Shown: positions 10,156-33,672, counted from the first letter of the stretch. The stretch: 64,000 nt of DNA from Alphaproteobacteria bacterium (GCA_965200265.1 OZ241357.1:194131-258130), one strand, 5' to 3'. Made by a program: numbers and translations. The notes: generated by a model from the sequence alone, not told the origin.

Positions 10156-12494
10156 CTAATTCCGCAAGGGCCTGCCCGTATCCAGCATATGCTCGATCCG
10201 GTCCCACGTCTCCGGCCGGCGGATCAGCGCCATGAACGCCGCGCGCTCCAGCTCGAGCAGCCGCCGTTCGTCGAGACTCCGCGTCGCGTCGGTCTCGCCG
10301 CCGGTGACGACGCCCGCCAGGGCGTCGGCGATCACGCGGTCGTGCGCCGTCGCGTCGCCCCGCCGCGCCATGCCGTCCACGACCAGGTTCAGGGTCGCCC
10401 GTCCGCTCGGGCCGGGAAGGCCGATCGCGGACGGCGCCGGCGGTTCGTAGCCCTCGACCAGGGACAGGGCCTTGGCCTTGGCGTCCGCCAGCACCCGGCG
10501 CCGGTTCATGGTGATGCCGTCGTCCGGCCCCAGGTAGAGGAGGTCCACGGCCTCCCGCGCCGACCGGGACACCTTGGCCCCGCCGATGGTCTCGAAGGCG
10601 TCGACGACCGGCGGCATGGGGCCGCCGGGGCGGTCCTTCCGCGCGAACGCGCGGGCGAGCAGTTCCTTGATCCCGCCCCAGCCGGGGACGAGCCCCACGC
10701 CGGCCTCGACGAGACCGAGATACGTCTCGGCATGGGCCTGCACGGCGTCGCAGTGCATGAGGATTTCGCAGCCGCCGCCGAGCGCCCTGCCCGCCGGCGC
10801 CCCGACGACGGGGAACGGCGCGTACTTGAGCGCCAGGAACGCCCGCTGTCCTTCCTCCAGCGCTCGCTCGATCGGCGCCCACATCGCGGCGTTGACGGCG
10901 AACAGGGCGGCGCCCAGGTTGGCGCCCACCGAGAAATCGTCGCCGTCGTGGCCGACGATCAGCGCCCTGTATCCACGTTCGTGCACGGCGGCGGCTTCCC
11001 GCGTCATGGCGATGATGCCGTCGTCGATGGCGTTCATCCTGGTGTGGAACTCGAGACAGGCGACGCCGTCGCCCACGTCCCAGAGGCTGGCGGACCCGTT
11101 CCCCGCGATCGGCTCGCGGCCGCGCTTCATGTCCGCGAGACGCCATGCGTCGGGCGGCGTGTCGAGGGCGGCATACCCGCCCGCCGGCGAGAGCTGCCGG
11201 ACCTCGCGGCCCGCCTCCCGGTAGAGCGGCCGCCCGGCCGCCGCTTCCAGCAACGGCGGGACCTCGCGCCCGTCCGCCTTCAGCCGCTCGACGAACCAGC
11301 CGCACCCGAGCCGGTCGATCATCTCCAGGGGACCGGACTTCCACCCGTAGCCGGCCGTCATCGCCCGGTCGACGTCGGCGATCCGCTCCGCCACGTCCGG
11401 CACCAGCGAGGCGGCGTAGGCGAGCACCCGGGACAGCACGCGCCAGGCGTACCGGCCGCCCTTGTCGGGATGCTCCACGAGCGTCCGCAGCCCGCCGTCC
11501 CCGGCGGCCGCCACGCTGTCGAGGCGCGGTTTCGATACGGGACGGTACGCGCCGGTCTCGAGGTCCCGGGCCTGGAGCTCGCGCGCCTCGCCATCGCGCG
11601 CCATGCGGTAGAACCCGCCCTCGCCCCGCCGGCCGATACGGCCCTCCGCGATCATGCCGGAGAGCAGGGCGGCCAGCGGCCCCTCCGCGTCGAACTCGCG
11701 GCACAAGGCGTCGTCCGGGGGAAGCATCTCCAGCATGGTCGCGTTGACCCTGGGCGCGAGGTCGATGCCCGTCAGGTCCATGAGCCCGAAGATCCCGGTC
11801 TTCGGAATGCCCATCGGCGGCCCGACCACGGCGTCCGCTTCCTCGACGGTCAGCCCCAGGGCCAACGCCTCGCTCATCGCCACGCAGGACCAGTAGATGC
11901 CGACGCGGTTGCCGATGAATCCCGGGGTGTCCTTGGCGCGCACGACCTCCTTGCCGAGGCGAACGTCGCAGAACTCGCGGATCGAGTCGCTCGCCTCGGG
12001 ACGCATGTCCGGCCCCGGCACGAATTCCAGCAGACGCATGTACCGCGGCGGGTTGAAGAAGTGCGTGATCGCGAAGTCGGAGGCGAAGCGCCCGGGCATC
12101 CCCTCGATCAGGCGGGCGAGCGGGATGGTCGACGTGTTCGACGTGACGACCGATCCCGCCTTGCGGACGGAGTCGACGGCTCGGTAGACGTCCCGCTTGA
12201 CGTCGAGGTCCTCGACCACGGCCTCGCAGATCCAGTCCGCGTCGTCCAGCAGCCCGATGTCGTCCTCGAGGTTCCCCGGCGCCACCAGTTCGGCCACGCT
12301 CCGGTGCATGAACGGCGCCGGCGTCGCCTCCAGCATCGCCGAGACGGCGCCTTCCGCCAGCTCGTTCCGGTTGTCCGCCCCCTCGGGAACGACGTCCAGC
12401 AGCGCCACCGGTACGCCGGCGTTGGCGACATGCGCGGCGATGGCGCTCCCCATCCGCCCGGCGCCGATCACGGCCGCCTTCGCGATGCCGGGCA

Positions 12495-12495
<1 letters not shown>
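10156..12495 (-). CDS. fused 3-hydroxyacyl-CoA dehydrogenase (N-terminal) / enoyl-CoA hydratase (C-terminal)
   Basis: Real start MPGIAKAAVIGAGRMGSAIAAHV (Rossmann GxGxxG) at 12495, overlapping the thiolase stop as ATGA. The C-terminal half has a crotonase fold (ALIVGHDGDDFSVGANLG...GGGCEILMHCD). Domain order is reversed relative to FadB. Confidence 0.85.
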
Positions 12496-13631
<1,136 letters not shown>

Positions 13632-16062: not shown

Positions 16063-17310
16063 TCAACCGTCCGGCGGCCGGCGCGGGTGCTCGACCGGAT
16101 GCGACGCCCACCTGGACGGCGCCACGACGTTCAGCTTCCCGTCCTGGATCTGGCGCAACACCATCGGCTTGGCGATGTTGTTGCCGGCTTCCGAGAACCT
16201 GATGTCGCCGTAGAACGTCGACATGTCGGTATCGGCCAGCGCCTGCCGCAGCTTCTCCGTGTCGAAACTCCGGGCCCGCTCGAACGCGTCCTTCCACACC
16301 ATCACGGCCGCCGATGCCTGGGCCGCCTGATAGGGCACGTTCTCGTAGCCGTCGTAGGTGGCCTTGAAGAGCCTGTCGTAATCGGCCGCCGACCCGAACA
16401 GGTCGTCGCCGTGGCTCAGCGTCTCGGCCCACTGCGTCGGGCACAGGATGCCGTTGGCCGCCGCGCCGAAGTTCTCGATCACCTCCGCCGACTCGCAATG
16501 GGTCATGGCGATCATCGGCGCGTCGATCCGCATTTCCTTGATCTGGCGGACCGCCGTGGCGGCGCCCCTGGAATGTCCCGACACCACCAGGACGTCGGGC
16601 TTGATCGCCTTGACCTTGGTCAGCGTCGCCGACATGTCGCTCAGGTCGCGCGGCAGCCTGTCGTCGATGACGATCCGCATCCCGTGCCTCCCGGCGTCGC
16701 CGACCACGCCGGCCCGGACGTCGAGCGAGAACGGGTCGTCCTCGAACGCCATGGCGAGCTTCAGGTCCGACGGCTCGCGGCCGTTCTTCCCGGCGATCTC
16801 GGCGGCGAGGTCGATGGCGCTCGCGAGGTACTGCTCGGAGGTCGACAGCACGCCGAACAGATACCTGTAGCCCTGCGTGAACAGCGAGCGGGACGCGCCC
16901 CCGGCTTCGACCATCGGAATCCTGTATTTCTCGGTCACCGGCGCGATCGCCTTGGTCAGGCCCGAGGAGTACGGGCCCAGCATGAACCTGATGCCGTCCT
17001 GCCTGATCAGACGCTCGGCGAGCCGGGCGCCGCGCGCCGGGGTCGACTCGTCGTCGTGGTACCTGATTTCCAGCATGAATGACTTGTCGCCCACCCTCAC
17101 GCCGCCCGCCTTGTTGATCATGTCGACGGCGAGGTTGTAGCCGTTCGAGGCGTGGATGCCGTTCGTCGAATACTTGCCGGTCAAGGAGATGGCCGCACCG
17201 AGGACGATCCTGTCTCCCTCGACCTTGGCGTCCGCCGGACCGGCGACGGCCAGACCCATCGCGAACGCGCCGGCCGCGACGGCCATGCACACGCGCAGTG
17301 AACGTTTCAT
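16063..17310 (-). CDS. ABC transporter substrate-binding protein, type I periplasmic binding fold (Leu/Ile/Val-binding protein family)
   Basis: 415 aa with a signal peptide (MKRSLRVCMAVAAGAFAMGLAVAGPADA). The body matches the LivK/ANF-receptor family. No permease or ATPase genes adjacent, so it is an orphan SBP. Confidence 0.8.
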   Translation of the reverse strand: MKRSLRVCMAVAAGAFAMGLAVAGPADAKVEGDRIVLGAAISLTGKYSTNGIHASNGYNLAVDMINKAGGVRVGDKSFMLEIRYHDDESTPARGARLAERLIRQDGIRFMLGPYSSGLTKAIAPVTEKYRIPMVEAGGASRSLFTQGYRYLFGVLSTSEQYLASAIDLAAEIAGKNGREPSDLKLAMAFEDDPFSLDVRAGVVGDAGRHGMRIVIDDRLPRDLSDMSATLTKVKAIKPDVLVVSGHSRGAATAVRQIKEMRIDAPMIAMTHCESAEVIENFGAAANGILCPTQWAETLSHGDDLFGSAADYDRLFKATYDGYENVPYQAAQASAAVMVWKDAFERARSFDTEKLRQALADTDMSTFYGDIRFSEAGNNIAKPMVLRQIQDGKLNVVAPSRWASHPVEHPRRPPDG

Positions 17311-17761
17311 CTCTCGATTCCCTTCCGGACGACCCAGGATGCGTTTCCGTCCGCGCCTCGGTCCCGCCCCGACGGAAGCCCGCAGCGCGGATGCCGAAAG
17401 CCATCCTATTTCTTTCCGCGCGCGACGGAAAGCGCCACCCGGCAGTGTCCCGGTTTGAAATATGGCGCGCCGGGCGAGCTTGTGCCGGCTATGCGCGCAT
17501 GGCGCTTCGCGCCGCTGCGAACCAGGAAATTTCCAACCGGGGCGCTACCTACGCATAAGAAGGACAGCTGGATCGTCGTGAATTTCGGGCCTTGAATTCG
17601 GCGCGCGACAACCCATATTCTTCACATGTCGCCCAAAGGGACGGCCGAGTGCGGCCTCCGGGGATATCCAGGATGCGATGTCCCCGCAGGTTCGGCATCG
17701 AGCCGAAGCTCCGCTGGTCCCGGCGGGTCGATTGACGCAACCCTGCATCCGGGAGGCCAAT

Positions 17762-20700
17762 ATGGAAATGCACCAAGACACGACCGTGGCGGTTCTCGTC
17801 GCCACGGCCGATCGGCCGACTCTGCTGACGAGCCGGGCTCTTCCGTCGATCACGGAACAGTCCCGGCCGCCGGACCGTGTGGTCGTCGTCGACGATTCGA
17901 CCGCCGACGCGACCGAACGATTGATCCGGGATTGGCACCCGCCGGGAGTCGACGTCGAATTCCTGCGTAACCGGCGGACGAAAGGCGCGGCCGGCGCATG
18001 GAACTCCGGCATCGATCAGCTGCTTCGGACGGGCGGCGATCCCGATCGGCTCCATGTCGCGATTCTCGACGACGATGACCGGTGGGACCCCCGCCACCTG
18101 GAGGCGTGCCTGGAAGCCGCCGAGACCCGTGGCCTCGATGTGGTCGCGGCGCCTTTCCGGCGAATCGAGGAGGGCGCCGCGCCGCGCTTGACGCTACCGC
18201 CGCCGAACCTCGACGCGGCGGACTTTCTGGTGGGCAATCCCGGCATCCAGGGCAGCAATCTGGTCGTCCGCCTGAGCGTGCTGCTCGAATCCGGGCTGTT
18301 CGACGAGTCGCTCGCGAGCTGCACGGACCGCGACCTGTGCATCCGCATCGCCGAGTTGCCGGGCGTGCGCTACGGCGTCACTTCCGAGACGACCGTCGAT
18401 CATTTCGCCTGCGCATCGCGGCCGCGCCTGTCCACGCCCGGATCGGCCGCCAAACGGGAGGGGTTGGACCGCTTCTGCCGCAAGCACAGCGGCCGCATGT
18501 CGGAGGACCAGCGGAAAGAGTTCGGGGATCGGGCATCCCGGTATTTCGGATGGACGGAACCGAAGGCCGCAACTGCAACCGCAACCGGCAAGGCCGCCTT
18601 CTCGTCCGCTCCACCCCGGTCCTCGGCTTCCGGTCCTGCGCCGCATCTGATCGTCGGCGTGATCGCGGATACGGAGCGGCTCGAAAACGTGGACGGCCTG
18701 CTCGTTGATCTTCGCGGCCTCGCCGAAGACCCTGAACTCTCGGGCCTCGACGTCCTTGTCCTGGAGAACGGCCGGGGCCGCGCGTCCGACCGGTCGCTGC
18801 GCGGTCTGGTCGAGCGCGAGCGTATGGAAGGCTCGCGGGTCCATCTCGTCGACCGTGCGCGGCACGTCGAGGACGCGAGCAACGGGCCGGTTCCCGACGG
18901 CGGGGCGGGAGAGGGCCGCAGGCTGGCCATAGCTCCCGCCCGAACGGTCCTGCAATCGTATCTGTATGCGTTCGCCAAGCGCCGTCCCGGCGCCGTGGTC
19001 TGGATCGTCGACGACGACATGCGGCTGGATCCGCTGATGGCGGCGGACGACGGCCGGCTGATGAGGCGGCGGCCGGACGTCGCGCCTTTTCTGCATGAGC
19101 TTCGTCGGCGACATGCGGGGGGTGAGCTCGATATCGTCATCGGGGCGTATACGGGCGCACCTCCGCTGCCGTTCGCGGCGACCGTGCGCGTGCAACTGGT
19201 CGATCTCGCCGCGTCGCTGCACTGGCTGATGGAACAGGACCCGCGGGCGCCGCTGCCGGATCGGAGTGCGGAGAACGCGGACCTGCGATCCGGCCGGCGC
19301 GACTACTACTACGACCTTTCGCGCAAGGAAACGGACCGCTTGGAAGCGCCGTTCTGGATCGTTCCCGCATTTCCGGACGAGATCGTCGGCGAAGCATTCG
19401 AGCGGATTTCCAGGACGGCCGAACGGATCCTGGCCGGGGAGCAAATCTTCCGGCCCCTCGCGGTCGAAGCCGGCATCGACCCGCTGGGCTCGCTCGGCAA
19501 AGGGTTCCAGCGCGGCGGCAATACCTTCGTGCTGGATATCGAAGCGCTGCGGCTGGCGCCCAACCCCTCCCCGGCCGTCGGCGGGCGGCCGAGCCGGCGT
19601 TCCGACATGATCTGGGCGCTGCTTCAAGCGCACTGTTTCCGCCGGCGCGTCGCCTCCATGCCGTTCCCCCTCTATCACGATCGCTCCCATGTTCCCGTCG
19701 ATGAGCTGGACACCGAGCGCGTCGTGGACGACATCCGCGGCTACGCGACGTTCTCCGCGCTCGACGAGATGTCCGGCGCGTTCGAGGCGGCGGACGATCT
19801 CGGCTTCACCCTCGTCCAAGGAATGACCGAGGACTTCACCGCCCGCGTGCGTAAATATCTCGAAGAACGCTTGGCGGCGTTTCGCCTGTCGTTCTACCGC
19901 GTCCGCGGCTTGATGCGCGTCCTGCGCCGGCTCGTGAACGACAAGGAGTCCTGGTGGGGCGGAGAACGGCACGCTCCTGCCAGGACGCGGCTCCTGGAGT
20001 TCTGCGACCGCCTGGATCGGTCATACACGATGGAGGTCCTGGACCGCATCGAGCGGGGAGTCAGGGAACTGGAGAATCGTGAAATCCGCGAGTTTCTCGC
20101 CCGGCTCCCGGAAGAAATAAAGGAGCACCGCGAACGGCTCTCGCAGTTCCCGATTCTGGCGCGGAGTCTCGAGAGCGAGAGGATCGCCAACGCCAAGGCC
20201 GTCGCTGCGCGGCTGGCCGGGCCCGTCGACCCGCTCGCGGTGCTGGGAAGCGGTATGGAAGGGGTGGCGTTCAGCGACGGAGCGCGTGTGTTCAAGGTTT
20301 TCGACCACTGGACACAATCTGACCGGGTGGATGCTCCGGCGTTTCTGCGCTCTCTCGTGGGTGCGTGGAAGGATACGCGCTGCCTCTACCCGATCCTCGA
20401 TTTTCACGAGGCGGGGCATCGCGCGGTTCTGGTCTATCCCTACGAGGCCAGCGAACCGTATGCCGGCGGCCACGGACCGGGGATGGTGGAGCTTCTCACC
20501 GAATGCCGACGGTACGGCATCGTCTGCCGCAACCTCTATCCCGCCAATCTGCGTGTCGTCGATGGACGGGTCCGGCTGATCGATTACGGCTCGGACCTCC
20601 GCCCCCTCCATGACGAACGCGAATTCACGGCGATGTGCCGGCGCGCCTGGCTGTGTTACCGGTGGGCCAATCGCTCCGACCTCAAGCGGATCATGCGCCG

Positions 20701-21526
20701 GGCGCTGGACGATGCCGGCATCCCCGAGCTGGAGGGGTTCGAACGGTTTCACGAAGCGGTCCGGCGGATGGCGGGGCTGCATGAGACGCCCGAGGACGTC
20801 GTGCTCGGGTTGGCCGGGCGGCCCGCGCACGTTCTCGATTACGGGTGCGGAAGCGGCCGACTGGCCAGGGTCCTGGCCGACCGGGGCGCACGGGTCCTGG
20901 GCTACGACCCCGACGGTGCCTATGGAACGCGGTGGGAGTCGCTTTGCGCCGGAGCCGGCAGGCTGCGGTTCACGCGCGACCGGGACGAGGCGCTGACGGC
21001 CGGCCCGTTCGATCTCGTGATCTGCCGCCGCGTTCTGTGCACGGTCGAGGAAGAGGAGGAAATGCGGGCGATCCTCCGCGATTTGCGGGCCGTGGCGGCC
21101 GAGCACGGCCGGGCGATCATAGCCGTCTGCGATCCGCATTTCACGTTCGGAGGCCCGACCCCGGAGGCCGATCGCGAACTGCCGCCCGGCGCCTGCTACG
21201 AGAGCGTGTTCGTATGGCGCAAGCGCATCCGGGCGACGGGCCGGACACGCCGCGACGTGCATCGGCCCGAGCGGATGCTGCGGCGCGCGTTTGCCCGCGC
21301 GGGCTTCGCGGTATGCCGCCGCGTGGAGACGCCGACCATCGACCTGGAGTGCTTCGAGCCGGCGTCGGACCTTCTGGCGTTCGAACTCCGGCCCCTGGCG
21401 CCGCTCATGGGCGAGGTCGCACTCCTGGTCAAGGCGGGCACGATGGAACCGATGAACGCGGCGAAGCCGCCGGCGCGAATCGCGGCGGGGCAAGGGATGG
21501 AATCCGACGCCGGGAACCGGCAATGA
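17762..21526 (+). CDS. 1254-aa multidomain protein: GT2 glycosyltransferase + second GT-A-like domain + protein-kinase-like domain with degenerate catalytic loop + class I SAM methyltransferase
   Basis: ATG 17762 is preceded by GGGAGG. Approximate domains in window coordinates: GT2 17783-18488 (VAVLVATADRPTLL...VVVVDDSTAD...ILDDDDRWDP); GT-A-like 18635-19778 (VVWIVDDDMRLDP); kinase-like 20225-20708 (GSGMEGVAF, VFKVF, CRNLYPANLRV, IDYGSD); MTase 20795-21428 (VLDYGCGSGRLARVLADRGARVLGYDP...FDLVICRRVL). Third codon positions are visibly less GC-biased than in neighbouring genes. Confidence 0.8.
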   Translation: MEMHQDTTVAVLVATADRPTLLTSRALPSITEQSRPPDRVVVVDDSTADATERLIRDWHPPGVDVEFLRNRRTKGAAGAWNSGIDQLLRTGGDPDRLHVAILDDDDRWDPRHLEACLEAAETRGLDVVAAPFRRIEEGAAPRLTLPPPNLDAADFLVGNPGIQGSNLVVRLSVLLESGLFDESLASCTDRDLCIRIAELPGVRYGVTSETTVDHFACASRPRLSTPGSAAKREGLDRFCRKHSGRMSEDQRKEFGDRASRYFGWTEPKAATATATGKAAFSSAPPRSSASGPAPHLIVGVIADTERLENVDGLLVDLRGLAEDPELSGLDVLVLENGRGRASDRSLRGLVERERMEGSRVHLVDRARHVEDASNGPVPDGGAGEGRRLAIAPARTVLQSYLYAFAKRRPGAVVWIVDDDMRLDPLMAADDGRLMRRRPDVAPFLHELRRRHAGGELDIVIGAYTGAPPLPFAATVRVQLVDLAASLHWLMEQDPRAPLPDRSAENADLRSGRRDYYYDLSRKETDRLEAPFWIVPAFPDEIVGEAFERISRTAERILAGEQIFRPLAVEAGIDPLGSLGKGFQRGGNTFVLDIEALRLAPNPSPAVGGRPSRRSDMIWALLQAHCFRRRVASMPFPLYHDRSHVPVDELDTERVVDDIRGYATFSALDEMSGAFEAADDLGFTLVQGMTEDFTARVRKYLEERLAAFRLSFYRVRGLMRVLRRLVNDKESWWGGERHAPARTRLLEFCDRLDRSYTMEVLDRIERGVRELENREIREFLARLPEEIKEHRERLSQFPILARSLESERIANAKAVAARLAGPVDPLAVLGSGMEGVAFSDGARVFKVFDHWTQSDRVDAPAFLRSLVGAWKDTRCLYPILDFHEAGHRAVLVYPYEASEPYAGGHGPGMVELLTECRRYGIVCRNLYPANLRVVDGRVRLIDYGSDLRPLHDEREFTAMCRRAWLCYRWANRSDLKRIMRRALDDAGIPELEGFERFHEAVRRMAGLHETPEDVVLGLAGRPAHVLDYGCGSGRLARVLADRGARVLGYDPDGAYGTRWESLCAGAGRLRFTRDRDEALTAGPFDLVICRRVLCTVEEEEEMRAILRDLRAVAAEHGRAIIAVCDPHFTFGGPTPEADRELPPGACYESVFVWRKRIRATGRTRRDVHRPERMLRRAFARAGFAVCRRVETPTIDLECFEPASDLLAFELRPLAPLMGEVALLVKAGTMEPMNAAKPPARIAAGQGMESDAGNRQ

Positions 21527-22833
21527 GAAGGAACACGGTCGCGATCGTCGGGTCGGCCGGGACCATATCGCGCGAGCTCCGGCACACCGTGGAGGCGTTG
21601 GCCCGCACCTTGTGCGACAGGGGCTTCGATCTCGTGACGGGAGGCATGGACGGGGTCATGCGCGCCGCGGCGCGGGGACACGGCCTGTCGTCAAACGGCG
21701 CCAATCTCGTTCATGTCGAACCCGGCTGGGGACGCGCCTGGGAGCGTAACCCGCACCCGGCGAGCGTCGTCAGAACGGACCTCGGATCGATGAGGAACCA
21801 TCTGGTGGTCCGATCGGCGGACCTCGTTGTCGCCGTATCCGGTGGATCGGGCACCCTGAGCGAGATGGCGATCGCCTGCCAGGAAGGAAAACCGGTCGCC
21901 GCGCTACGGGGGTCGGGCGGCTGGAGCGACAGGCTGGCCGATACGACCCTGGATCGACGCCGCCGTACGGCGACCGTGACGGGCTGCGATACGGTGGACG
22001 ACGTCGCGGCATGGGCCGATCGACTCCGGCCGGAGGGGGTGTACGCGGGGCGGGTGAACCAGGGTTTCTATCCCCTTGAAGTGCCGGCCTTGCACCGCAT
22101 GTACGAAGGAGCGCCCGACGAACATCACCGGATGCATCTGCGATACGGGATGTCGATTGCGAAGTCCGATCTCGTGCGTCGACTGGAGCGGTTGAACCGA
22201 AGGGTCGAGTCGTGGAACCGGAAGCATGACGCCACGACCGTCGCCCTGATCACCTTCGACGATGGCTGGAAGGACGTGACGCGCCTCGTCGCTACTTTCG
22301 ACAATCTCCCCTGCCTTTGTCCGGTCCTGTTCGTGGGCGAGAACCATTTCCGGGAGCCGTTGCGGCCGCTCCCGCTACAGAGGCTCTATCGCCACTGCAC
22401 GGCTCACGGATTGGATCCGGAGGATTTGGCGGCACTCCGCCGCGTGACCAGAAGCCGGTTGAAGTCCTTGCCCGAGGCCGATCAGCACGCCGCCCTGGAC
22501 AGCCTCGGCATCGATGCGATGCTCGACCCGGAGTGGTTGCTGAACCCGGAAGACATCGCGCGTCTGAGGTCCGCCGGCTGGATCGTCGCATCGCACGGTG
22601 ACCGCCACGAAGACCTGACCTGCCGGGCGGGCCTGGGAGACGAGCTCGCGCGCCTCGCCGAGTCGATCGAAAACCGCGGGCACATGCCCTGGTTGGCATG
22701 GCCCGAGGGACGATGGTCCCGATCGTCGTGCGAAAATGCCCGTGTGGCCGGGTTCCGCCTTCAGTTCGGTCTACGCACCCAACCGTGCGGACGGCCGTGC
22801 GAAGGTATGGTGACGAGAACGGTCTGGAAATGA
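21523..22833 (+). CDS. fusion protein: LOG/SLOG-like Rossmann nucleotide-binding domain (TIGR00725-like) + NodB-type polysaccharide deacetylase
   Basis: ATG 21523 overlaps the stop of the upstream gene as ATGA. N-terminal half VAIVGSAGTISRE...VTGGMDGVMRAAARG...VVAVSGGSGTLSEMAIA fits the LOG/YpsA-like SLOG fold. C-terminal half ITFDDGWKDV...HGDRHEDLT carries NodB deacetylase motifs (D-D and His-His). Confidence 0.75.
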   Translation: MRRNTVAIVGSAGTISRELRHTVEALARTLCDRGFDLVTGGMDGVMRAAARGHGLSSNGANLVHVEPGWGRAWERNPHPASVVRTDLGSMRNHLVVRSADLVVAVSGGSGTLSEMAIACQEGKPVAALRGSGGWSDRLADTTLDRRRRTATVTGCDTVDDVAAWADRLRPEGVYAGRVNQGFYPLEVPALHRMYEGAPDEHHRMHLRYGMSIAKSDLVRRLERLNRRVESWNRKHDATTVALITFDDGWKDVTRLVATFDNLPCLCPVLFVGENHFREPLRPLPLQRLYRHCTAHGLDPEDLAALRRVTRSRLKSLPEADQHAALDSLGIDAMLDPEWLLNPEDIARLRSAGWIVASHGDRHEDLTCRAGLGDELARLAESIENRGHMPWLAWPEGRWSRSSCENARVAGFRLQFGLRTQPCGRPCEGMVTRTVWK

Positions 22834-22980
22834 CACCGGCGTCTTCCGCGCCCTTTACGCGCCCGGCCGCGGACGCGGAACTCCCGATCATCTCTCAAAC
22901 CCGCCCGAGTCCTCCTCGCCGCGACCGTCACGCCTCCGGAACCAGCCCCGGGGCGCTACCGACGGGCTCGACCGGGATGG

Positions 22981-23035
22981 ATTCCCGTTTTCGCGGGAAT
23001 GACGGCCGGAGGAAGGCCCGTTCGACGAAACGGGC
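22981..23035. terminator. two short inverted repeats in a convergent intergenic region (putative bidirectional terminator hairpins)
   Basis: ATTCCCG-tttcg-CGGGAAT (22981-23000) and GCCCGTT-cgacga-AACGGGC (23016-23035) lie between the 3' ends of the deacetylase-fusion gene (+) and the PPOX-family gene (-). No clear U-tract. Confidence 0.2.
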
Positions 23036-23172
23036 GGGCCATCGACTGCGATTCACTCTCTGGCAGGGGGGAGGGACGTCAATGGACCCGGACCGGAATT
23101 GCACGATCCGCACACCCTCCAGAGGCGAAGCCGGCGCGGACGACGAGGCGCTCCGGCACCGGCGCCAACGGC

Positions 23173-23787
23173 TCAGTAGAGCTTGTCGCGGTAGGCCTCC
23201 TCGACCGCGGCTTCCGCGACTTCGGGGGACTGTACGCCGGTCTGGTCGGCCAGGATGCGGCCGAGGCTCGGAAAGGACTCGCGGTCGATGCGCCGCTCCG
23301 GGTCCCAGAGTTTCGAGCGCATCAGCGCCTTGGCGCAGTGGAGGAACGCTTCCTCCACCTTGACGACGAGACCCGTCCGGGGCCGCTTGCCGTCGACGGA
23401 AAGCGGTTCCAGCAGCGCGCCGTCCGTGGTGATCCCGGCCTTGCCGTTGACCCGCAGCGTCTCGTTCATGCCGGGCACGAAGAAGATCAGGCCGACGTGG
23501 GGATTCTCGACGATGTTCGACATCGAGTCGACGCGGTTGTTGCCGAGCCGGTCGGGGATCAACAGGGTCTCGTCGTCGAGCACCCGCACGAACCCCGGCG
23601 CGTCGCCCTTCGGCGAACAGTCGGCCGAACCGTCGGCGGCGGCCGTCCCCAGCACGCAGAACGGCGAGAGGCCGATGAAGGCGCGGCAGTGCGCGTCGAG
23701 CCTGGACAGCGCCTTGTTGGCGGCGCGGACGTTCGGCTCCCCGTACAGGGCCCGCAGTGCGGCGGCGTCGACGATCCGTTCGCTCAT
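23173..23787 (-). CDS. pyridoxamine 5'-phosphate oxidase family protein (FMN-binding split barrel)
   Basis: The PNPOx-like split-barrel pattern was judged from the whole translated ORF (e.g. CVLGTAAADGSADCSPKGD) rather than a single diagnostic motif. Start chosen at MSERIV. Confidence 0.65.
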   Translation of the reverse strand: MSERIVDAAALRALYGEPNVRAANKALSRLDAHCRAFIGLSPFCVLGTAAADGSADCSPKGDAPGFVRVLDDETLLIPDRLGNNRVDSMSNIVENPHVGLIFFVPGMNETLRVNGKAGITTDGALLEPLSVDGKRPRTGLVVKVEEAFLHCAKALMRSKLWDPERRIDRESFPSLGRILADQTGVQSPEVAEAAVEEAYRDKLY

Positions 23788-29756: not shown

Positions 29757-32054
29757 ATGTCGGCTGCCGAGGACCTCGACTACCAGGAGAAGCCCCACGA
29801 GTTGAAGTGGGTGGGAACGAACGTCGCCCGCACGGACGGCGTCGACAAGGTTACCGGGAGGGCGCGTTTCGGCGCCGACCTCATCATGCCCGGCATGGTG
29901 TTCGGCGCGGTGCTGCGCAGTCCGCACGCGCACGCGAGGATCAACGGGATCGATACGTCCGGGGCGGAGGCCCTCAAGGGCGTCAAGGCGGTGGTCACGC
30001 GGGACGATTTCGAGGACCAGCCGTCGGAGATGATCCAGGTGGGCGAGCTGACGGTCAACATCCGGGACGTCATCCGCAACGTGCTGGCGCGGGAAAAGGC
30101 CATGTACGACGGTCACGCGGTGGCGGCCGTGGCCGCGACCAGCGCGTCGATCGCGCGCAAGGCGCTGAAGCTCATCGAGGTCGATTACGAGGTGCTGCCG
30201 CACGTCATCGACGTGGTCGAGGCGATGAAACCCGATGCCCCGCTTCTCGACGAGCATCAGTTCACGGACGGCGTGGACCCGAAGCCCGACAGGCCGTCCA
30301 ACGTGGCCAAGCGGCTCGAGATCAAGCTCGGCGACGTGGAGGAGGGATTCGCCGAGGCCGATGTCGTCATCGAGCGCGAATACCGGACACGCCCGGTCCA
30401 TCAGGGCTACATCGAGCCGCACGCCTGCGTGGCGAGCTACACGGAGGATGGTCAGGGCGAGGTCTGGTGCTCGACGCCCGGCCATTTCCTGGTTCGGGCG
30501 ATCACCTCGCGTCTCTGCGGCGTCGAGGTCTCGAAGCTCAAGGTCACGGCCTCCGAGATCGGCGGCGGTTTCGGCGGCAAGAACATCGTCTACTTGGAAC
30601 CCCTCGCCCTGGCGCTGTCGCGGAAGTGCGGACGGCCGGTGAAGATGGCGATGCACCGGAGCGAGGTCTTCCGGGCCACGGGGCCGACGTCCGGCGCCCA
30701 CATGAAGGTGAAGATCGGCGCCCGGCGCGACGGCAGGATTACCGCGGGATGGGCCGAACTGATGTTCCAGGCGGGCGCCTTTCCGGGCTCGCCCGTATTC
30801 CCGGCGGCGATGTGCGCCTATGCGTGCTACGACCTGGAGAACGTGCTGGTGATCGGCTACGACGTCATCGCCAACCGGCCCAAAACGACGGCCTACCGGG
30901 CGCCGGGGGCGCAGATTTCGGCGTTCGCCGTGGAGAGCGCCATGGACGAGATGGCGCGCGAGCTCGGCATCGATCCGGTGGACTTCCGGCTGATGAACGC
31001 CGCCAAGGAGGGGACGAAGGCCGCCTACGGCCCGACGTTCGGACCGATCGGGCAGGTGGAGACCCTGAAGGCCATCAGGAACCACCCGAACTACCGCGCG
31101 CCGCTCGGCCCGAACCAGGGACGCGGGGTCGCGTCGGGGTTCTGGTTCAACATCGGCGGCGAGACCAGCGTTACCATGAACGTCAACGACGACGGCACCG
31201 TCGCGCTGACGATGGGGAACCCCGACCTCAGCGGCACGCGGACGTCCATCTCGGTGATGGCCGCCGAGGAGCTCGGCATCGAGCCCGAGCGCGTCCGTCC
31301 CGCCGTCGGCGATACGACGTCGCTCGGTTTCAACTTCATCAGCGCCGGCAGCCGCACGACGTTCGCCGTCGGCAAGGCGGCGGTGGACGCCGCCCGCGTC
31401 GTGATCGACGAGTTGAGAGGCCGCGCCGCCGCCACCTGGGACATCCCGGTCGAGGCCGTGGTCTGGGAGGACGGGCACGCCCGTCCCGCCAGCAGCAACG
31501 CGGGCGACTTCGAACCCCTGTCGCTGGAGGACATCGCCCGCGACGCGAAGAAGACGGGCGGCCCGATCGCGGGGCACGTGGAGACCAACGTCTCCGGCGC
31601 GGGACCGAGCTTCGCCACCGAGGCGGTCGACGTCGAGGTGGACCCGGAAACGGGGCACATCAAGATCCTGCGCTTCACGGCCGCGCAGGACGCGGGCAAG
31701 GCCATCCAGCCCAACCTCGTCGAGGGCCAGTACCAGGGCGCGGCCGTCCAGGGCATCGGCTGGGCGCTCAACGAGGAGTACATCTACGACGAGCGGGGGC
31801 GGATGGAGAACCCGGGATTCCTGGATTATCGTATGCCCGTGGCCTCGGATCTGCCGATGATCGACGCGGTCATCATCGAGGTCCCGAACCCGAACCATCC
31901 CTATGGCGTCCGGGGCATCGGCGAGACGTCCATCGTGCCGGTGATGGCGGCCGTGGCGAACGCGCTCGAGGACGCGGCCGGTGTCCGGGTTCAGGAACTG
32001 CCCCTGTCGCCGCCTCGGGTCCTGAAGGCCCTCAACGAGAAGAACGGGAGCTGA
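29757..32054 (+). CDS. molybdenum hydroxylase family, molybdopterin-binding large subunit (xanthine dehydrogenase/aldehyde oxidase/CoxL-like)
   Basis: 765 aa with an aldehyde oxidase/xanthine dehydrogenase a/b hammerhead and MoCo-binding domains (GGGFGGK, the active-site E in GIGE near the C-terminus). Confidence 0.85.
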   Translation: MSAAEDLDYQEKPHELKWVGTNVARTDGVDKVTGRARFGADLIMPGMVFGAVLRSPHAHARINGIDTSGAEALKGVKAVVTRDDFEDQPSEMIQVGELTVNIRDVIRNVLAREKAMYDGHAVAAVAATSASIARKALKLIEVDYEVLPHVIDVVEAMKPDAPLLDEHQFTDGVDPKPDRPSNVAKRLEIKLGDVEEGFAEADVVIEREYRTRPVHQGYIEPHACVASYTEDGQGEVWCSTPGHFLVRAITSRLCGVEVSKLKVTASEIGGGFGGKNIVYLEPLALALSRKCGRPVKMAMHRSEVFRATGPTSGAHMKVKIGARRDGRITAGWAELMFQAGAFPGSPVFPAAMCAYACYDLENVLVIGYDVIANRPKTTAYRAPGAQISAFAVESAMDEMARELGIDPVDFRLMNAAKEGTKAAYGPTFGPIGQVETLKAIRNHPNYRAPLGPNQGRGVASGFWFNIGGETSVTMNVNDDGTVALTMGNPDLSGTRTSISVMAAEELGIEPERVRPAVGDTTSLGFNFISAGSRTTFAVGKAAVDAARVVIDELRGRAAATWDIPVEAVVWEDGHARPASSNAGDFEPLSLEDIARDAKKTGGPIAGHVETNVSGAGPSFATEAVDVEVDPETGHIKILRFTAAQDAGKAIQPNLVEGQYQGAAVQGIGWALNEEYIYDERGRMENPGFLDYRMPVASDLPMIDAVIIEVPNPNHPYGVRGIGETSIVPVMAAVANALEDAAGVRVQELPLSPPRVLKALNEKNGS

Positions 32055-32139
32055 CGCGGTTCCGGTCCCGGGACCCGGCGGCACGGTGGGCGGTACGGTG
32101 CCGGACCCGGGGTCCGACCCGGATTGGACCCGATCTTCG

Positions 32140-33672
32140 ATGAGCCCGGTTCGCAACGTCGTCCTCATCACCTCCGACCAGCAGCGCGGCGACTGTTTCG
32201 GTTTCGAGGGACGCAACATCAAGACACCGCACCTCGACGTCATGGCGCGCGGGGGCGCCCGCTTCGCCGCCTGCATCACGCCCAACAACGTCTGCCAGCC
32301 GTCACGCGCCTCGATCCTCACGGGGTTGCTGCCGAACACGCACGGCGTGCACGACAACGGAATCGACCTCGACCCCGCGACCGGCGAGGCGGGTATCGCG
32401 GGGACACTTGCCGACGCCGGGGTAAGAACGGGCTTCATCGGCAAGGCGCACTTCTCGACGGCGGTGACGTTCGAGCCCACGGGCACGCCGGAGAGCCGCC
32501 TGTCGATGGCGGACTACGGACCCGACTGGTTCGGCCCCTACATGGGCTTCGAACACGTGGAGCTGGTGGTTCTGGGCCACAACCGCTGGCATCCCATGGA
32601 ACCCCCCGGCGGCCAGCATTACGAAGCGTGGTACCATGGGGACGGTCTCGGCCGTCTCAAGAACGAGCTTTACGAGACCCGTCTGGAACCGGTCACCGAT
32701 GCCGTCCAGACCTGGCATTCGGCGCTGCCGCCGGCTTGGCACAATTCGACCTGGGTCGGCGACCGGACCATCGATTTTCTCCGCGAGAACAAGGACGAGC
32801 GGTTTTTCCTGTGGGCGTCCTTTCCGGACCCCCACCATCCCTTCGACGCCCCGGAACCGTGGTCGCGGCTGCATCGCCCGGAGGAGGTCGACCTGCCGCC
32901 CGAGCGGACCAAGGACCTCGACCGTCGGCCCTGGTGGCACCGCGCCAGCCTCGAGGGTGTCCCGAAGATCACCGAGGAGATGCGGAAGATCCGCCAGAAC
33001 TACTCCCGCGTCCCGGATCAGACCGACCGTCAGCTCCGGGAGATCATCGCCAACTACTACGGCATGATCTCGTTGATTGACCACAACGTCGGACGCGTTC
33101 TGGCTGCGCTCGCCGACCTCGGCCTTGCCGACGACACGCTGACGATCTACACGGCCGATCATGGCGACTGGCTCGGCGATCACGGACTGATCCTCAAGGG
33201 TCCCATCAATTACGAAGGGCTGGTCCGCGTCGGCCTGATCTTCCAGGGACCGTCGGTGCCGCGAGACCGGGTCGTCGACGATCCGGTCTCGACGCTGGAC
33301 ATACCGGCGACGGTGCTCGACTACATGGGCGTGTCACCGGGCGGCGAGATGCACGGCCGCAGCCTCAAGGGGCTGGTGGACGGCAAGGATGGCGAGAGTC
33401 GGGACTTCGCCTACAACGAATGGGACATCAACGCCTCCCGGTGCGGCGTCGCTCTCGACCTGCGCATGGCGCGCACCCGGACCCACAAACTGACGATCGA
33501 GACCGGATCGAGCACCGGCGAGCTCTACGATCTGAAGAGCGATCCCCACGAAATGGACAACCTGTTCGACGACGACGGCGCCCGGTCCGTTCGCAAGGAA
33601 CTGGAAGACATGATCTCCTCTCGCCCGGACGACGAGGTGGAGGTCAAGCCGACCCCCGTAGGCATGGCATGA
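32140..33672 (+). CDS. Cys-type sulfatase (arylsulfatase/choline-sulfatase-like), no signal peptide
   Basis: Sulfatase signature CQPSRASILTG (C-x-P-S-R formylglycine site) preceded by VVLITSDQQRGD. About 510 aa without an N-terminal signal sequence, so cytoplasmic like BetC. Confidence 0.8.
   Translation: MSPVRNVVLITSDQQRGDCFGFEGRNIKTPHLDVMARGGARFAACITPNNVCQPSRASILTGLLPNTHGVHDNGIDLDPATGEAGIAGTLADAGVRTGFIGKAHFSTAVTFEPTGTPESRLSMADYGPDWFGPYMGFEHVELVVLGHNRWHPMEPPGGQHYEAWYHGDGLGRLKNELYETRLEPVTDAVQTWHSALPPAWHNSTWVGDRTIDFLRENKDERFFLWASFPDPHHPFDAPEPWSRLHRPEEVDLPPERTKDLDRRPWWHRASLEGVPKITEEMRKIRQNYSRVPDQTDRQLREIIANYYGMISLIDHNVGRVLAALADLGLADDTLTIYTADHGDWLGDHGLILKGPINYEGLVRVGLIFQGPSVPRDRVVDDPVSTLDIPATVLDYMGVSPGGEMHGRSLKGLVDGKDGESRDFAYNEWDINASRCGVALDLRMARTRTHKLTIETGSSTGELYDLKSDPHEMDNLFDDDGARSVRKELEDMISSRPDDEVEVKPTPVGMA

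Follow-up and report, generated by a model that had tools for sequence, protein, structure and literature searches.

A mobile two-gene cassette encoding a multidomain glycosyltransferase-fold protein and a SLOG–CE4 fusion, with a possible role in cytoplasmic glycan assembly

Architecture of the cassette

We examined a 64,000-nucleotide stretch of DNA from a member of the Alphaproteobacteria (GCA_965200265.1 OZ241357.1:194131-258130), hereafter the window, in which a first-pass annotation had singled out two adjacent genes as a candidate undescribed glycan-modification system. Both open reading frames (ORFs) lie on the same strand exactly where that annotation placed them (Table 1). The ATG of gene 1 has a GGGAGG box upstream, and the N-terminus that it specifies agrees with those of homologues. 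The proposed translational coupling of the two genes is borne out at their junction, where the start of gene 2 sits within ...GGCAATGAG... and overlaps the preceding stop by ATGA. The same ATGA overlap is present in a related locus, L002, and a Fusobacteriaceae homologue with 24% identity has a 4-bp overlap. No exact record of gene 1 was found in the assembly index. Both gene products are probably soluble cytoplasmic proteins, that of gene 1 with a predicted mass of 140 kDa; the maximum Kyte-Doolittle hydrophobicity over any 19-residue window is 1.41, and neither protein has a segment of transmembrane strength.

The composition of the cassette sets it apart from its surroundings, as originally noted. 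Gene 1 and gene 2 have G and C fractions of 0.82 and 0.80 at third codon positions, compared with 0.85-0.93 for ten neighbouring genes, and the upstream intergenic region (17311-17761) is AT-richer, at 64.3% GC versus 68.7% for the whole window. Hairpins described for the convergent gap downstream are indeed present, but the folding of this gap is no better than that of shuffled sequence (z = 0.16), and a terminator scan detects none within 22843-23001. The counts from the promoter and terminator scan are not above those of shuffled controls.

Table 1. Features of the cassette and its flanks (window coordinates).
Feature	Coordinates	Strand	Description
Promoter-proximal region and 5' leader	17586..17761	+	-35-like CTTGA(C/A/T), CTTGAA in the window
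Candidate structured cis-regulatory RNA	17627..17728	+	Long-range helix around two hairpins
Gene 1	17762..21526	+	1254-aa multidomain protein; short, C-terminally deleted form of a ~1750-aa family
Domain A, GT2 glycosyltransferase	17762..18646	+	aa 1-295; DDDD aa 103-106 (18068-18079)
Domain B, orphan GT-A fold	18713..19822	+	aa 318-687; DDD aa 417-419 (19010-19018)
Helical bundle	19823..20215	+	aa 688-818; DSSP on AF2 model, helices 371-501 (model numbering)
Protein-kinase fold	20225..20782	+	aa 822-1007; GSGMEGV, K845, CRN(924)LYPAN(929), D941-Y-G
Class I SAM methyltransferase	20789..21406	+	aa 1010-1215; motif I VLDYGCGSG
Deletion junction and residual 3' tail	21445..21526	+	Orphan VDxD domain and second GT2 missing
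Gene 2	21523..22833	+	436-aa SLOG-CE4 fusion; start overlaps gene 1 stop (ATGA)
SLOG domain	21523..22032	+	aa 1-170; TM1055/Moco-carrier/TIGR00725 type; GGMDGVMRA, R91, SGGSGTLSE(114)
CE4/NodB-type deacetylase domain	22075..22830	+	~aa 185-436; TFDDG aa 244-248, H358-x3-H362
Hairpins, convergent gap	22843..23001	.	CUUCCGCG...CGCGGAA 22843-22879; AUUCCCG-UUUUCG-CGGGAAU 22981-23001

All six domain calls of the first-pass annotation were upheld, the two at the ends of gene 1 by profile matches. Domain A matches PF00535 at aa 25-138 (9e-17; 61.9 bits against a cut-off of 23.3), and its proposed DxD motif, D103-D106, is invariant among 35 diverse homologues and aligns with the DDD of PglI. A profile search of the PDB likewise returns PglI (5e-12), and also chondroitin synthase. 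At the other end, PF13489 (48.6 bits against 27), PF13649 and PF08241 all pass their cut-offs, spanning aa 1018-1184, and the S-adenosylmethionine (SAM) methyltransferase motif VLDYGCGSG is present as called; D22, G24, G26 and D45 (alignment numbering) are invariant. The PDB matches of this domain are generic (TehB, UbiG), with WbdD accounting for 1 of 99 at ~1e-5. Pfam is silent for aa 300-1000, and NCBIfam adds nothing specific.

The central region was analysed with an alignment of 47 homologues and an AlphaFold2 (AF2) model with a predicted local distance difference test score (pLDDT) of 93.6 and a predicted template modelling score (pTM) of 0.90. Neither Pfam, NCBIfam nor a PDB profile search gives a useful match to domain B, and a member-by-member Pfam scan (35 members, E up to 10) finds no relevant family. 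In the model this domain has a GT-A fold, as had been proposed for it. Its nearest folds may be the GT75 mutases of nucleoside diphosphate (NDP)-pyranoses, and GlfT2 is also a fold match. A Foldseek query of the PDB using the three-domain model is dominated by kinases and adds nothing for domain B, while hhalign gives a weak match of its DxD-containing half to the N-terminal GT2 (probability 37%, E 3.6e-4).

The hallmarks of GT75 enzymes are a DDD motif, an autoglycosylated Arg (R159 in MtdL), a phosphate-binding Arg (R257) and a Mn-binding His (H287) (PMC9937993). Domain B shares the DDD motif with MtdL and with the plant UDP-arabinopyranose mutases, or reversibly glycosylated polypeptides (UAM/RGP). 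The motif lies in VWIVDDDMRLDP, with D417 and D419 invariant and D418 nearly so. Invariant Arg residues occur 59 and 147 positions past the first Asp, compared with 50 and 148 in MtdL. However, domain B differs from GT75 in lacking similarity to Pfam models or PDB entries at the sequence level, and it has no invariant His to match His287 of MtdL. The GT-A-like description is accepted, whereas a GT75-like one is only a possibility, the GT75 hallmarks being reproduced only in part.

The helical bundle that follows matches no family. In the same model the adjoining kinase-like region adopts a bilobal kinase fold, and by sequence it matches TTK, CK2, CaMKII and ROCK at 3e-6 to 1e-3, resembling eukaryotic protein kinases (ePK) and Rio kinases and not the aminoglycoside phosphotransferase (APH) type. 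A set of 31 homologues, reaching down to 26% identity, shows no variation at G829, G831, K845, N929 or D941. Equally invariant in this set is N924, an Asn at the position of the catalytic Asp. When aligned with TTK, GIVCRNxHPxNLRV..RLIDYGS falls opposite GIVHSDLKPANFLI..KLIDFG, with N924 opposite the D of HSD. The kinase-like assignment thus holds for the fold and the ATP-binding residues but not for the catalytic Asp of the HRD motif, which is replaced by Asn. Pseudokinases that bind ATP, among them HER3 and the JH2 domain of JAK, are marked by this change from HRD to xRN. Some relatives, of 1971-1981 aa (P0042/L015 and L021), carry Pro/Ser/Ala-rich repeats and other insertions in the linker, kinase-like and methyltransferase regions, which may be real or assembly artefacts.

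The first-pass annotation had compared the kinase and methyltransferase pair with WbdD, and gene 1 might accordingly be a polymerase-terminator of an ABC-transporter-dependent surface polysaccharide, like WbdD/WbdA, WbbB or O7 ORF6, in which glycosyltransferases would work on undecaprenyl pyrophosphate, a methylphosphate would cap the chain and the helical region would act as a ruler. Its inventory fits, since these systems combine a class I methyltransferase, a kinase fold, a helical region and GT2 modules in one polypeptide or pair; WbdD is among the methyltransferase matches noted above, and multi-module terminators with GT2 polymerases have precedents (PMC11231755; PMC3482155). However, WbdD of E. 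coli O9a runs from methyltransferase to kinase to coiled coil (PMC3482155), and O7 ORF6 of K. pneumoniae from methyltransferase through kinase, carbohydrate-binding module (CBM) and coiled coil to two GT2 modules (PMC11231755), whereas the order here is reversed: GT2, GT-A, helical, kinase-like and methyltransferase, then (GT-A', GT2). The catalytic Asp of O7 ORF6, D441, is essential, D441A being inactive (PMC11231755), whereas an invariant Asn occupies this position in the present family, whose kinase-like domain is therefore probably not a kinase of the WbdD type.

Several further features speak against a terminator. The helical region is modelled with high confidence (pTM 0.90) as a compact bundle, not a long coiled coil. 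As the first-pass annotation had stated, no exporter or polymerase accompanies the genes: Wzx, Wzm/Wzt, a polymerase, an initiating transferase and any other O-antigen or capsule gene are absent from the window and from the vicinity of the cassette in more than 80 loci. The family has no ABC transporter or O-antigen context, and it has a SLOG partner. It is also found in archaea and in the Dehalococcoidia, a class reported to lack an outer membrane. A WbdD-type terminator thus fails on three defining features (active kinase, domain order and locus context) and was rejected as a candidate; we regard an enzyme of this kind as quite improbable. The WbdD analogy is weak in any case, given the reversed order, the Asn and the generic nature of the methyltransferase match, and the fusion of a terminator to glycosyltransferases already exists in O7 ORF6 (PMC11231755).

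The protein encoded by gene 2 was modelled with AF2 (pLDDT 87.3), and its conservation was assessed in 37 homologues. Both halves conform to the LOG/SLOG and NodB assignments made at the outset. The first matches SLOG cluster 4 (PF18306) at aa 5-144 (1e-28, above the cut-off) and has a Rossmann-like SLOG fold, and the second matches Polysacc_deac_1 (PF01522) at aa 341-412, also above the cut-off, and has a (beta/alpha)7 fold. A PDB profile search agrees with this division. The SLOG motifs GGxxGxM, R91 and GGSGTLSE114 are invariant. R91 and E114 do not settle whether the domain is an enzyme, because the same residues occur in the alignment of the non-enzymatic molybdenum cofactor (Moco) carrier protein. 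Against the TIGR00725 equivalog the domain scores 80.5 bits, below the cut-off of 106.9. In the CE4 domain T244, F245 and D246 are invariant and D247, H358 and H362 nearly so, a pattern that predicts an intact catalytic base and Asp-His-His metal site.

Horizontal spread, partners and a conserved leader

A homology search yielded 797 relatives, mostly of ~1750 aa, and an exhaustive representative search with the central region of gene 1 (E up to 1e-3) gave 671 clusters at 50% identity. When one genome per GTDB species was scanned, 218 genomes contained a relative, and 80 loci were retrieved, all of them from metagenome-assembled genomes (MAGs), with no cultured isolate among the hosts. These hosts comprise Alpha- and Gammaproteobacteria, Latescibacterota, Gemmatimonadota, Poribacteria, Dehalococcoidia, Planctomycetota, Myxococcota, Desulfobacterota, Spirochaetota, Marinimicrobia and Fusobacteriaceae, together with the archaeal Poseidoniales and Nitrosopumilaceae, so that, besides two archaeal lineages, over 10 bacterial phyla are represented. 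Proteins of the Poseidoniales loci L069 and L070 (~785 aa), and also those of L078 and L081, are ~760-795 aa in length and consist of GT2 and domain B only, which suggests that this pair is the ancestral core unit.

Homologues from Alphaproteobacteria, Latescibacterota, Gemmatimonadota and Poribacteria share 60-70% protein identity. In blastn comparisons with L002, L005 and L035, similarity begins at 17586-17629, ~175 bp upstream of gene 1, and stops just past gene 2, with unrelated flanks on either side. The high identity between phyla and the unrelated flanks together indicate horizontal transfer among marine microbes that are only very distantly related, and the acquisition first suggested by composition is therefore supported by a cassette that alone is common to other genomes. 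A 17-nt direct repeat (CCGGGGCGCTACC[T/G]ACG, 16/17 identical) that brackets the cassette at 17537-17553 and 22948-22964 was considered as an insertion scar and rejected; it is probably not one, because about one such pair is estimated to arise by chance in 6 kb of this composition. Eight loci (L009, L013, L016, L023, L043, L055, L060 and L064) come from bins whose names are typical of the sponge microbiome (RHO, STY, Candidatus Poribacteria, Candidatus Poriferihabitaceae), and these names suggest an association with sponges.

The two genes travel together. Of 63 complete loci, 36 have a SLOG gene immediately downstream and on the same strand, in phyla ranging from Alphaproteobacteria to Planctomycetota, Myxococcota and Fusobacteriaceae; the two genes are usually 0-30 bp apart or overlap. 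When all flanking ORFs were clustered, the SLOG gene was the sole conserved neighbour (35 loci, median gap 0). The next are an NAD-dependent sugar epimerase/dehydratase, present in 13 loci, and an NDP-sugar dehydrogenase of the UDP-glucose type, present in L054, L055 and L064, which come from Dehalococcoidia and Poribacteria. Other neighbours, in the window as elsewhere, are unrelated metabolic and transport genes.

The LOG–NodB fusion, described at first as unfamiliar, is real, but it is only one of several interchangeable arrangements. In Planctomycetota and Fusobacteriaceae the SLOG domain has a gene to itself (~190-200 aa), which either abuts the stop of gene 1 or overlaps it, and in Myxococcota SLOG and NodB occupy separate frames. 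Megaproteins of ~2000 aa in other lineages carry NodB as a C-terminal fusion, a position taken in Planctomycetota by a histidine phosphatase. It is these alternative fusions that argue most strongly for deacetylation as a part of the same pathway.

Genes of defence or mobile type adjoin the cassette in three loci. These encode ParE/RelB (L004, 13491-14058), an AAA_21/AAA_15 ATPase (L013, 5958-7703) and a BglII-type endonuclease with an N6/N4 methyltransferase (L003, 19339-20554). Such neighbours, together with rampant horizontal transfer, non-conserved flanks and a pseudokinase-type domain, could reflect a conflict, signalling or host-interaction module in which the SLOG domain senses a nucleotide second messenger and the megaprotein glycosylates or methylates a protein or nucleic acid. 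However, the defence-type neighbours are sporadic, PADLOC gives a generic methyltransferase match only, and the partners that do recur are carbohydrate enzymes (CE4, sugar epimerase, NDP-sugar dehydrogenase). We found no supporting profile match or conserved context for a defence system, which was rejected, and we judge a conflict, signalling or host-interaction module very unlikely. The sporadic neighbours are consistent with residence in variable genomic islands.

Conservation extends into the 5' leader. With nhmmer the leader region is detected in 21 loci, in each case upstream of a gene 1 homologue, at protein identities as low as 48%; leader-bearing loci include L002-L006, L008-L010, L012, L014, L015, L020-L022, L026, L027, L030 and L035. 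RNAalifold, applied to an alignment of 18 sequences, predicts 23 pairs, 12 of which show compensatory changes versus 5-8 in slid controls. Pairing is possible in 91.5% of cells compared with 39-51% when partners are slid, and the observed values were reached in none of 500 shuffles, although the structure was scored on the same alignment from which it was derived. A covariance model of the leader finds matches solely upstream of gene 1 homologues. In a search of 17000-23400 against Rfam (E up to 1), no family matches the leader, and one spurious match to an internal ribosome entry site (IRES) falls inside the coding sequence. Inspection by eye reveals a conserved GGAUG loop whose complement, CAUCC, is found immediately upstream of the Shine-Dalgarno sequence, and a GCCUCC that is complementary to the Shine-Dalgarno GGAGGC. 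The arrangement is reminiscent of a translational switch, and the leader probably controls translation of the operon.

Loss of the C-terminal region

Most relatives have a further ~500 aa at the C-terminus, made up of an orphan domain marked by VDxD and another GT2 that matches PF00535. The VDxD domain has no match in the PDB, and hhalign shows no relation between it and domain B. Gene 1 of the window is a deletion form that has lost ~1.47 kb, about a third of the enzyme. Compared with the full-length locus L002, positions 17588-21447 are 91.5% identical at the nucleotide level and positions 21519-22838, which cover gene 2, are 76.7% identical; between these blocks lie 71 bp in the window versus 1538 bp in L002. 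Downstream of the junction the nearest relatives are different ones. Positions 21445-22871 are 88.8% identical to 11842-13262 of the short-form locus L030, and the tail and gene 2 as a whole are nearest to L030 and L004 (88.8-89.5%). The cassette is thus a mosaic, with the body of gene 1 closest to L002 and its tail and gene 2 closest to L030/L004.

Short forms recur in at least four lineages. One group consists of the window, L001 and P0002 and another of L004 and L030, which keep a remnant of the extension; others occur in Azotimanducaceae and Myxococcota. L001 and the window come from one species (98.2% identity over 23.8 kb), the short form of L001 shows 96% protein identity, and the P0002 protein is 93% identical to that of the window. 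The SLOG gene is retained downstream in 12 of 13 short forms. Within the alphaproteobacterial clade we observe four states: a long form with gene 2 (L002), a long form with a remnant of gene 2 (L005, aa 1-77; L035, aa 389-433), a long form only, and a short form with gene 2. In this clade (L002-L006, L030, L035 and the window) decay appears as an either/or pattern, in which some loci combine the long form with a gene 2 remnant and others have gene 2 but no C-terminal GT-A'/GT2 part.

These losses raise the question of whether the window copy is itself a decaying remnant, inactivated by the 1.47-kb deletion, with its ORFs on the way to becoming pseudogenes. The deletion does remove two conserved domains, parts of the cassette demonstrably decay elsewhere (gene 2 in L005 and L035, the C-terminal extension in L004 and L030), and the ratio of nonsynonymous to synonymous substitution rates (dN/dS) reaches 0.38-0.51 against the nearest relatives. 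However, frames of 1254 and 436 codons are intact and their ATGA coupling is kept, all catalytic residues that are invariant in the family are present, and the short form has been retained in L001 and P0002 as well as in Azotimanducaceae, Myxococcota and two alphaproteobacterial lineages, nearly always with the SLOG gene downstream. Overall, gene 1 has dN/dS values of 0.24-0.51 and gene 2 values of 0.13-0.30, all well below 1. Constraint is relaxed, yet the genes are not neutral, and we consider a dying remnant unlikely.

A possible glycan assembly and editing operon

We favor, at a probability of roughly one half, the view that the cassette is a mobile two-gene operon that uses nucleotide sugars to build a small glycan or glycoconjugate in the cytoplasm and to edit it. 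The folds, motifs, linkage, truncation and mobility are its firm part; every activity, as well as the identity and location of the product, is inferred. Domain A, in which both fold and DxD motif are observed, would transfer a sugar from an NDP-sugar. Domain B would be a second metal-dependent, NDP-sugar-binding GT-A module that either attaches a second sugar or, in the manner of GT75, would convert or prime the donor. The helical bundle and kinase fold keep the G-loop, Lys, Mg-binding Asn and DYG Asp but no catalytic base, so the kinase fold would most likely be a nucleotide-binding scaffold or regulator, or perform non-canonical chemistry, rather than act as a sugar kinase. The class I methyltransferase may methylate the product.

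The gene 2 protein, presumably made in a fixed ratio with that of gene 1 through translational coupling, would edit this product. Its CE4 domain might remove an acetyl group from an N-acetyl-hexosamine-type unit, and its SLOG domain might bind a nucleotide-derived ligand as a sensor, carrier or N-glycosidase. In full-length relatives the VDxD domain and second GT2 would extend the glycan, giving four GT-A modules versus two in the window copy. Because the deletion removed both C-terminal domains, the window copy probably makes a shorter product. The "self-contained machine" envisaged by the first-pass annotation is overstated, the copy at hand being a truncated version of a larger enzyme; a logic of building and then editing is plausible. 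In none of the genomes does the cassette have a carrier-lipid, flippase or ABC exporter gene beside it, so the product most likely remains in the cytoplasm or passes to unlinked machinery. The recurring carbohydrate partners support the assembly and editing operon in that they fit nucleotide-sugar chemistry.

Known systems offer partial parallels. Two-domain GT2 polymerases (the chondroitin polymerase K4CP, GlfT2, heparosan synthase) are likewise soluble or peripheral, have tandem GT-A domains and appear among the profile matches of the N-terminal GT2, whereas they are without a kinase-fold domain, a methyltransferase or a SLOG/CE4 partner and sit in capsule or cell-wall clusters. The same three chemistries that are predicted here, glycosyl transfer, de-N-acetylation and methylation, occur in that order in Nod-factor synthesis, catalyzed by NodC (GT2), NodB (CE4) and NodS (a SAM N-methyltransferase). 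The analogy would be one of logic: NodC is an integral membrane processive synthase, and no closer sequence relationship than that of superfamilies was found, no test aimed at one having been made. The SLOG domain differs from the TM1055/Moco carrier/TIGR00725 branch in its fusion to CE4 and its coupling to a glycosyltransferase megaprotein.

Several observations weigh against an assembly and editing operon. Throughout the family, every activity is deduced from folds and motifs. The dN/dS values of 0.38-0.51 relative to the closest relatives are high for a housekeeping enzyme. In half of the long-form loci no SLOG gene lies within ~6 kb, and the partnership is therefore not obligatory. The closest solved relatives of the SLOG domain, TM1055 and the Moco carrier protein, are not known enzymes. 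Export genes could be located elsewhere in the genome. CE4 enzymes carry RxPY as motif 3 and LxH, which contains the catalytic acid, as motif 5. In the 37 homologues of gene 2, an invariant W393-P-E-G replaces RxPY, and no His is conserved in the last strands. This CE4 domain may thus not be a classical de-N-acetylase. It also differs from PplD, IcaB and PgaB/BpsB, which are extracytoplasmic and act on exported polymers, in that it has no signal peptide, is fused to a SLOG domain, carries WPEG in place of motif 3 and has an unrecognizable motif 5.

A more elaborate scheme can be drawn, although we hold it to be unlikely. Here the cassette would be a new type of self-contained cytoplasmic glyco-assembly line, in which domain B, being GT75-like, makes an NDP-furanose donor or primes itself on an Arg, the GT2 modules extend the chain, an ATP-binding pseudokinase and a SLOG nucleotide sensor gate activity and a novel riboswitch-like leader controls expression. 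Its product would be an undescribed methylated, partly de-N-acetylated intracellular glycan, spread horizontally among marine, probably sponge-associated bacteria and archaea. Self-priming is known from glycogenin and RGP.

If the operon acts as we favor, a glycan or glycoconjugate would be made wholly in the cytoplasm by one polypeptide and a coupled editing subunit, a bacterial pseudokinase would be embedded in a carbohydrate enzyme, and the TM1055/TIGR00725 branch of the LOG superfamily would gain its first functional context. The interphylum identities of 60-70% and the sponge-type bin names suggest a trait exchanged among the members of a host-associated community. The conserved structured leader could be used to track down the controlling metabolite. 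A literature search on SLOG with glycosyltransferase, kinase or methyltransferase, on TIGR00725, on LDcluster4 and on sponge-symbiont glycosyltransferases returned no description of the family. The initial designation "undescribed" thus appears correct, for what is a large family without a characterized member that is nevertheless assembled from known modules. Elsewhere in the window, a sulfatase gene (PF00884 with SGSH_C) is located at 32026-33672, and a similar sulfatase lies close to the cassette of L003.

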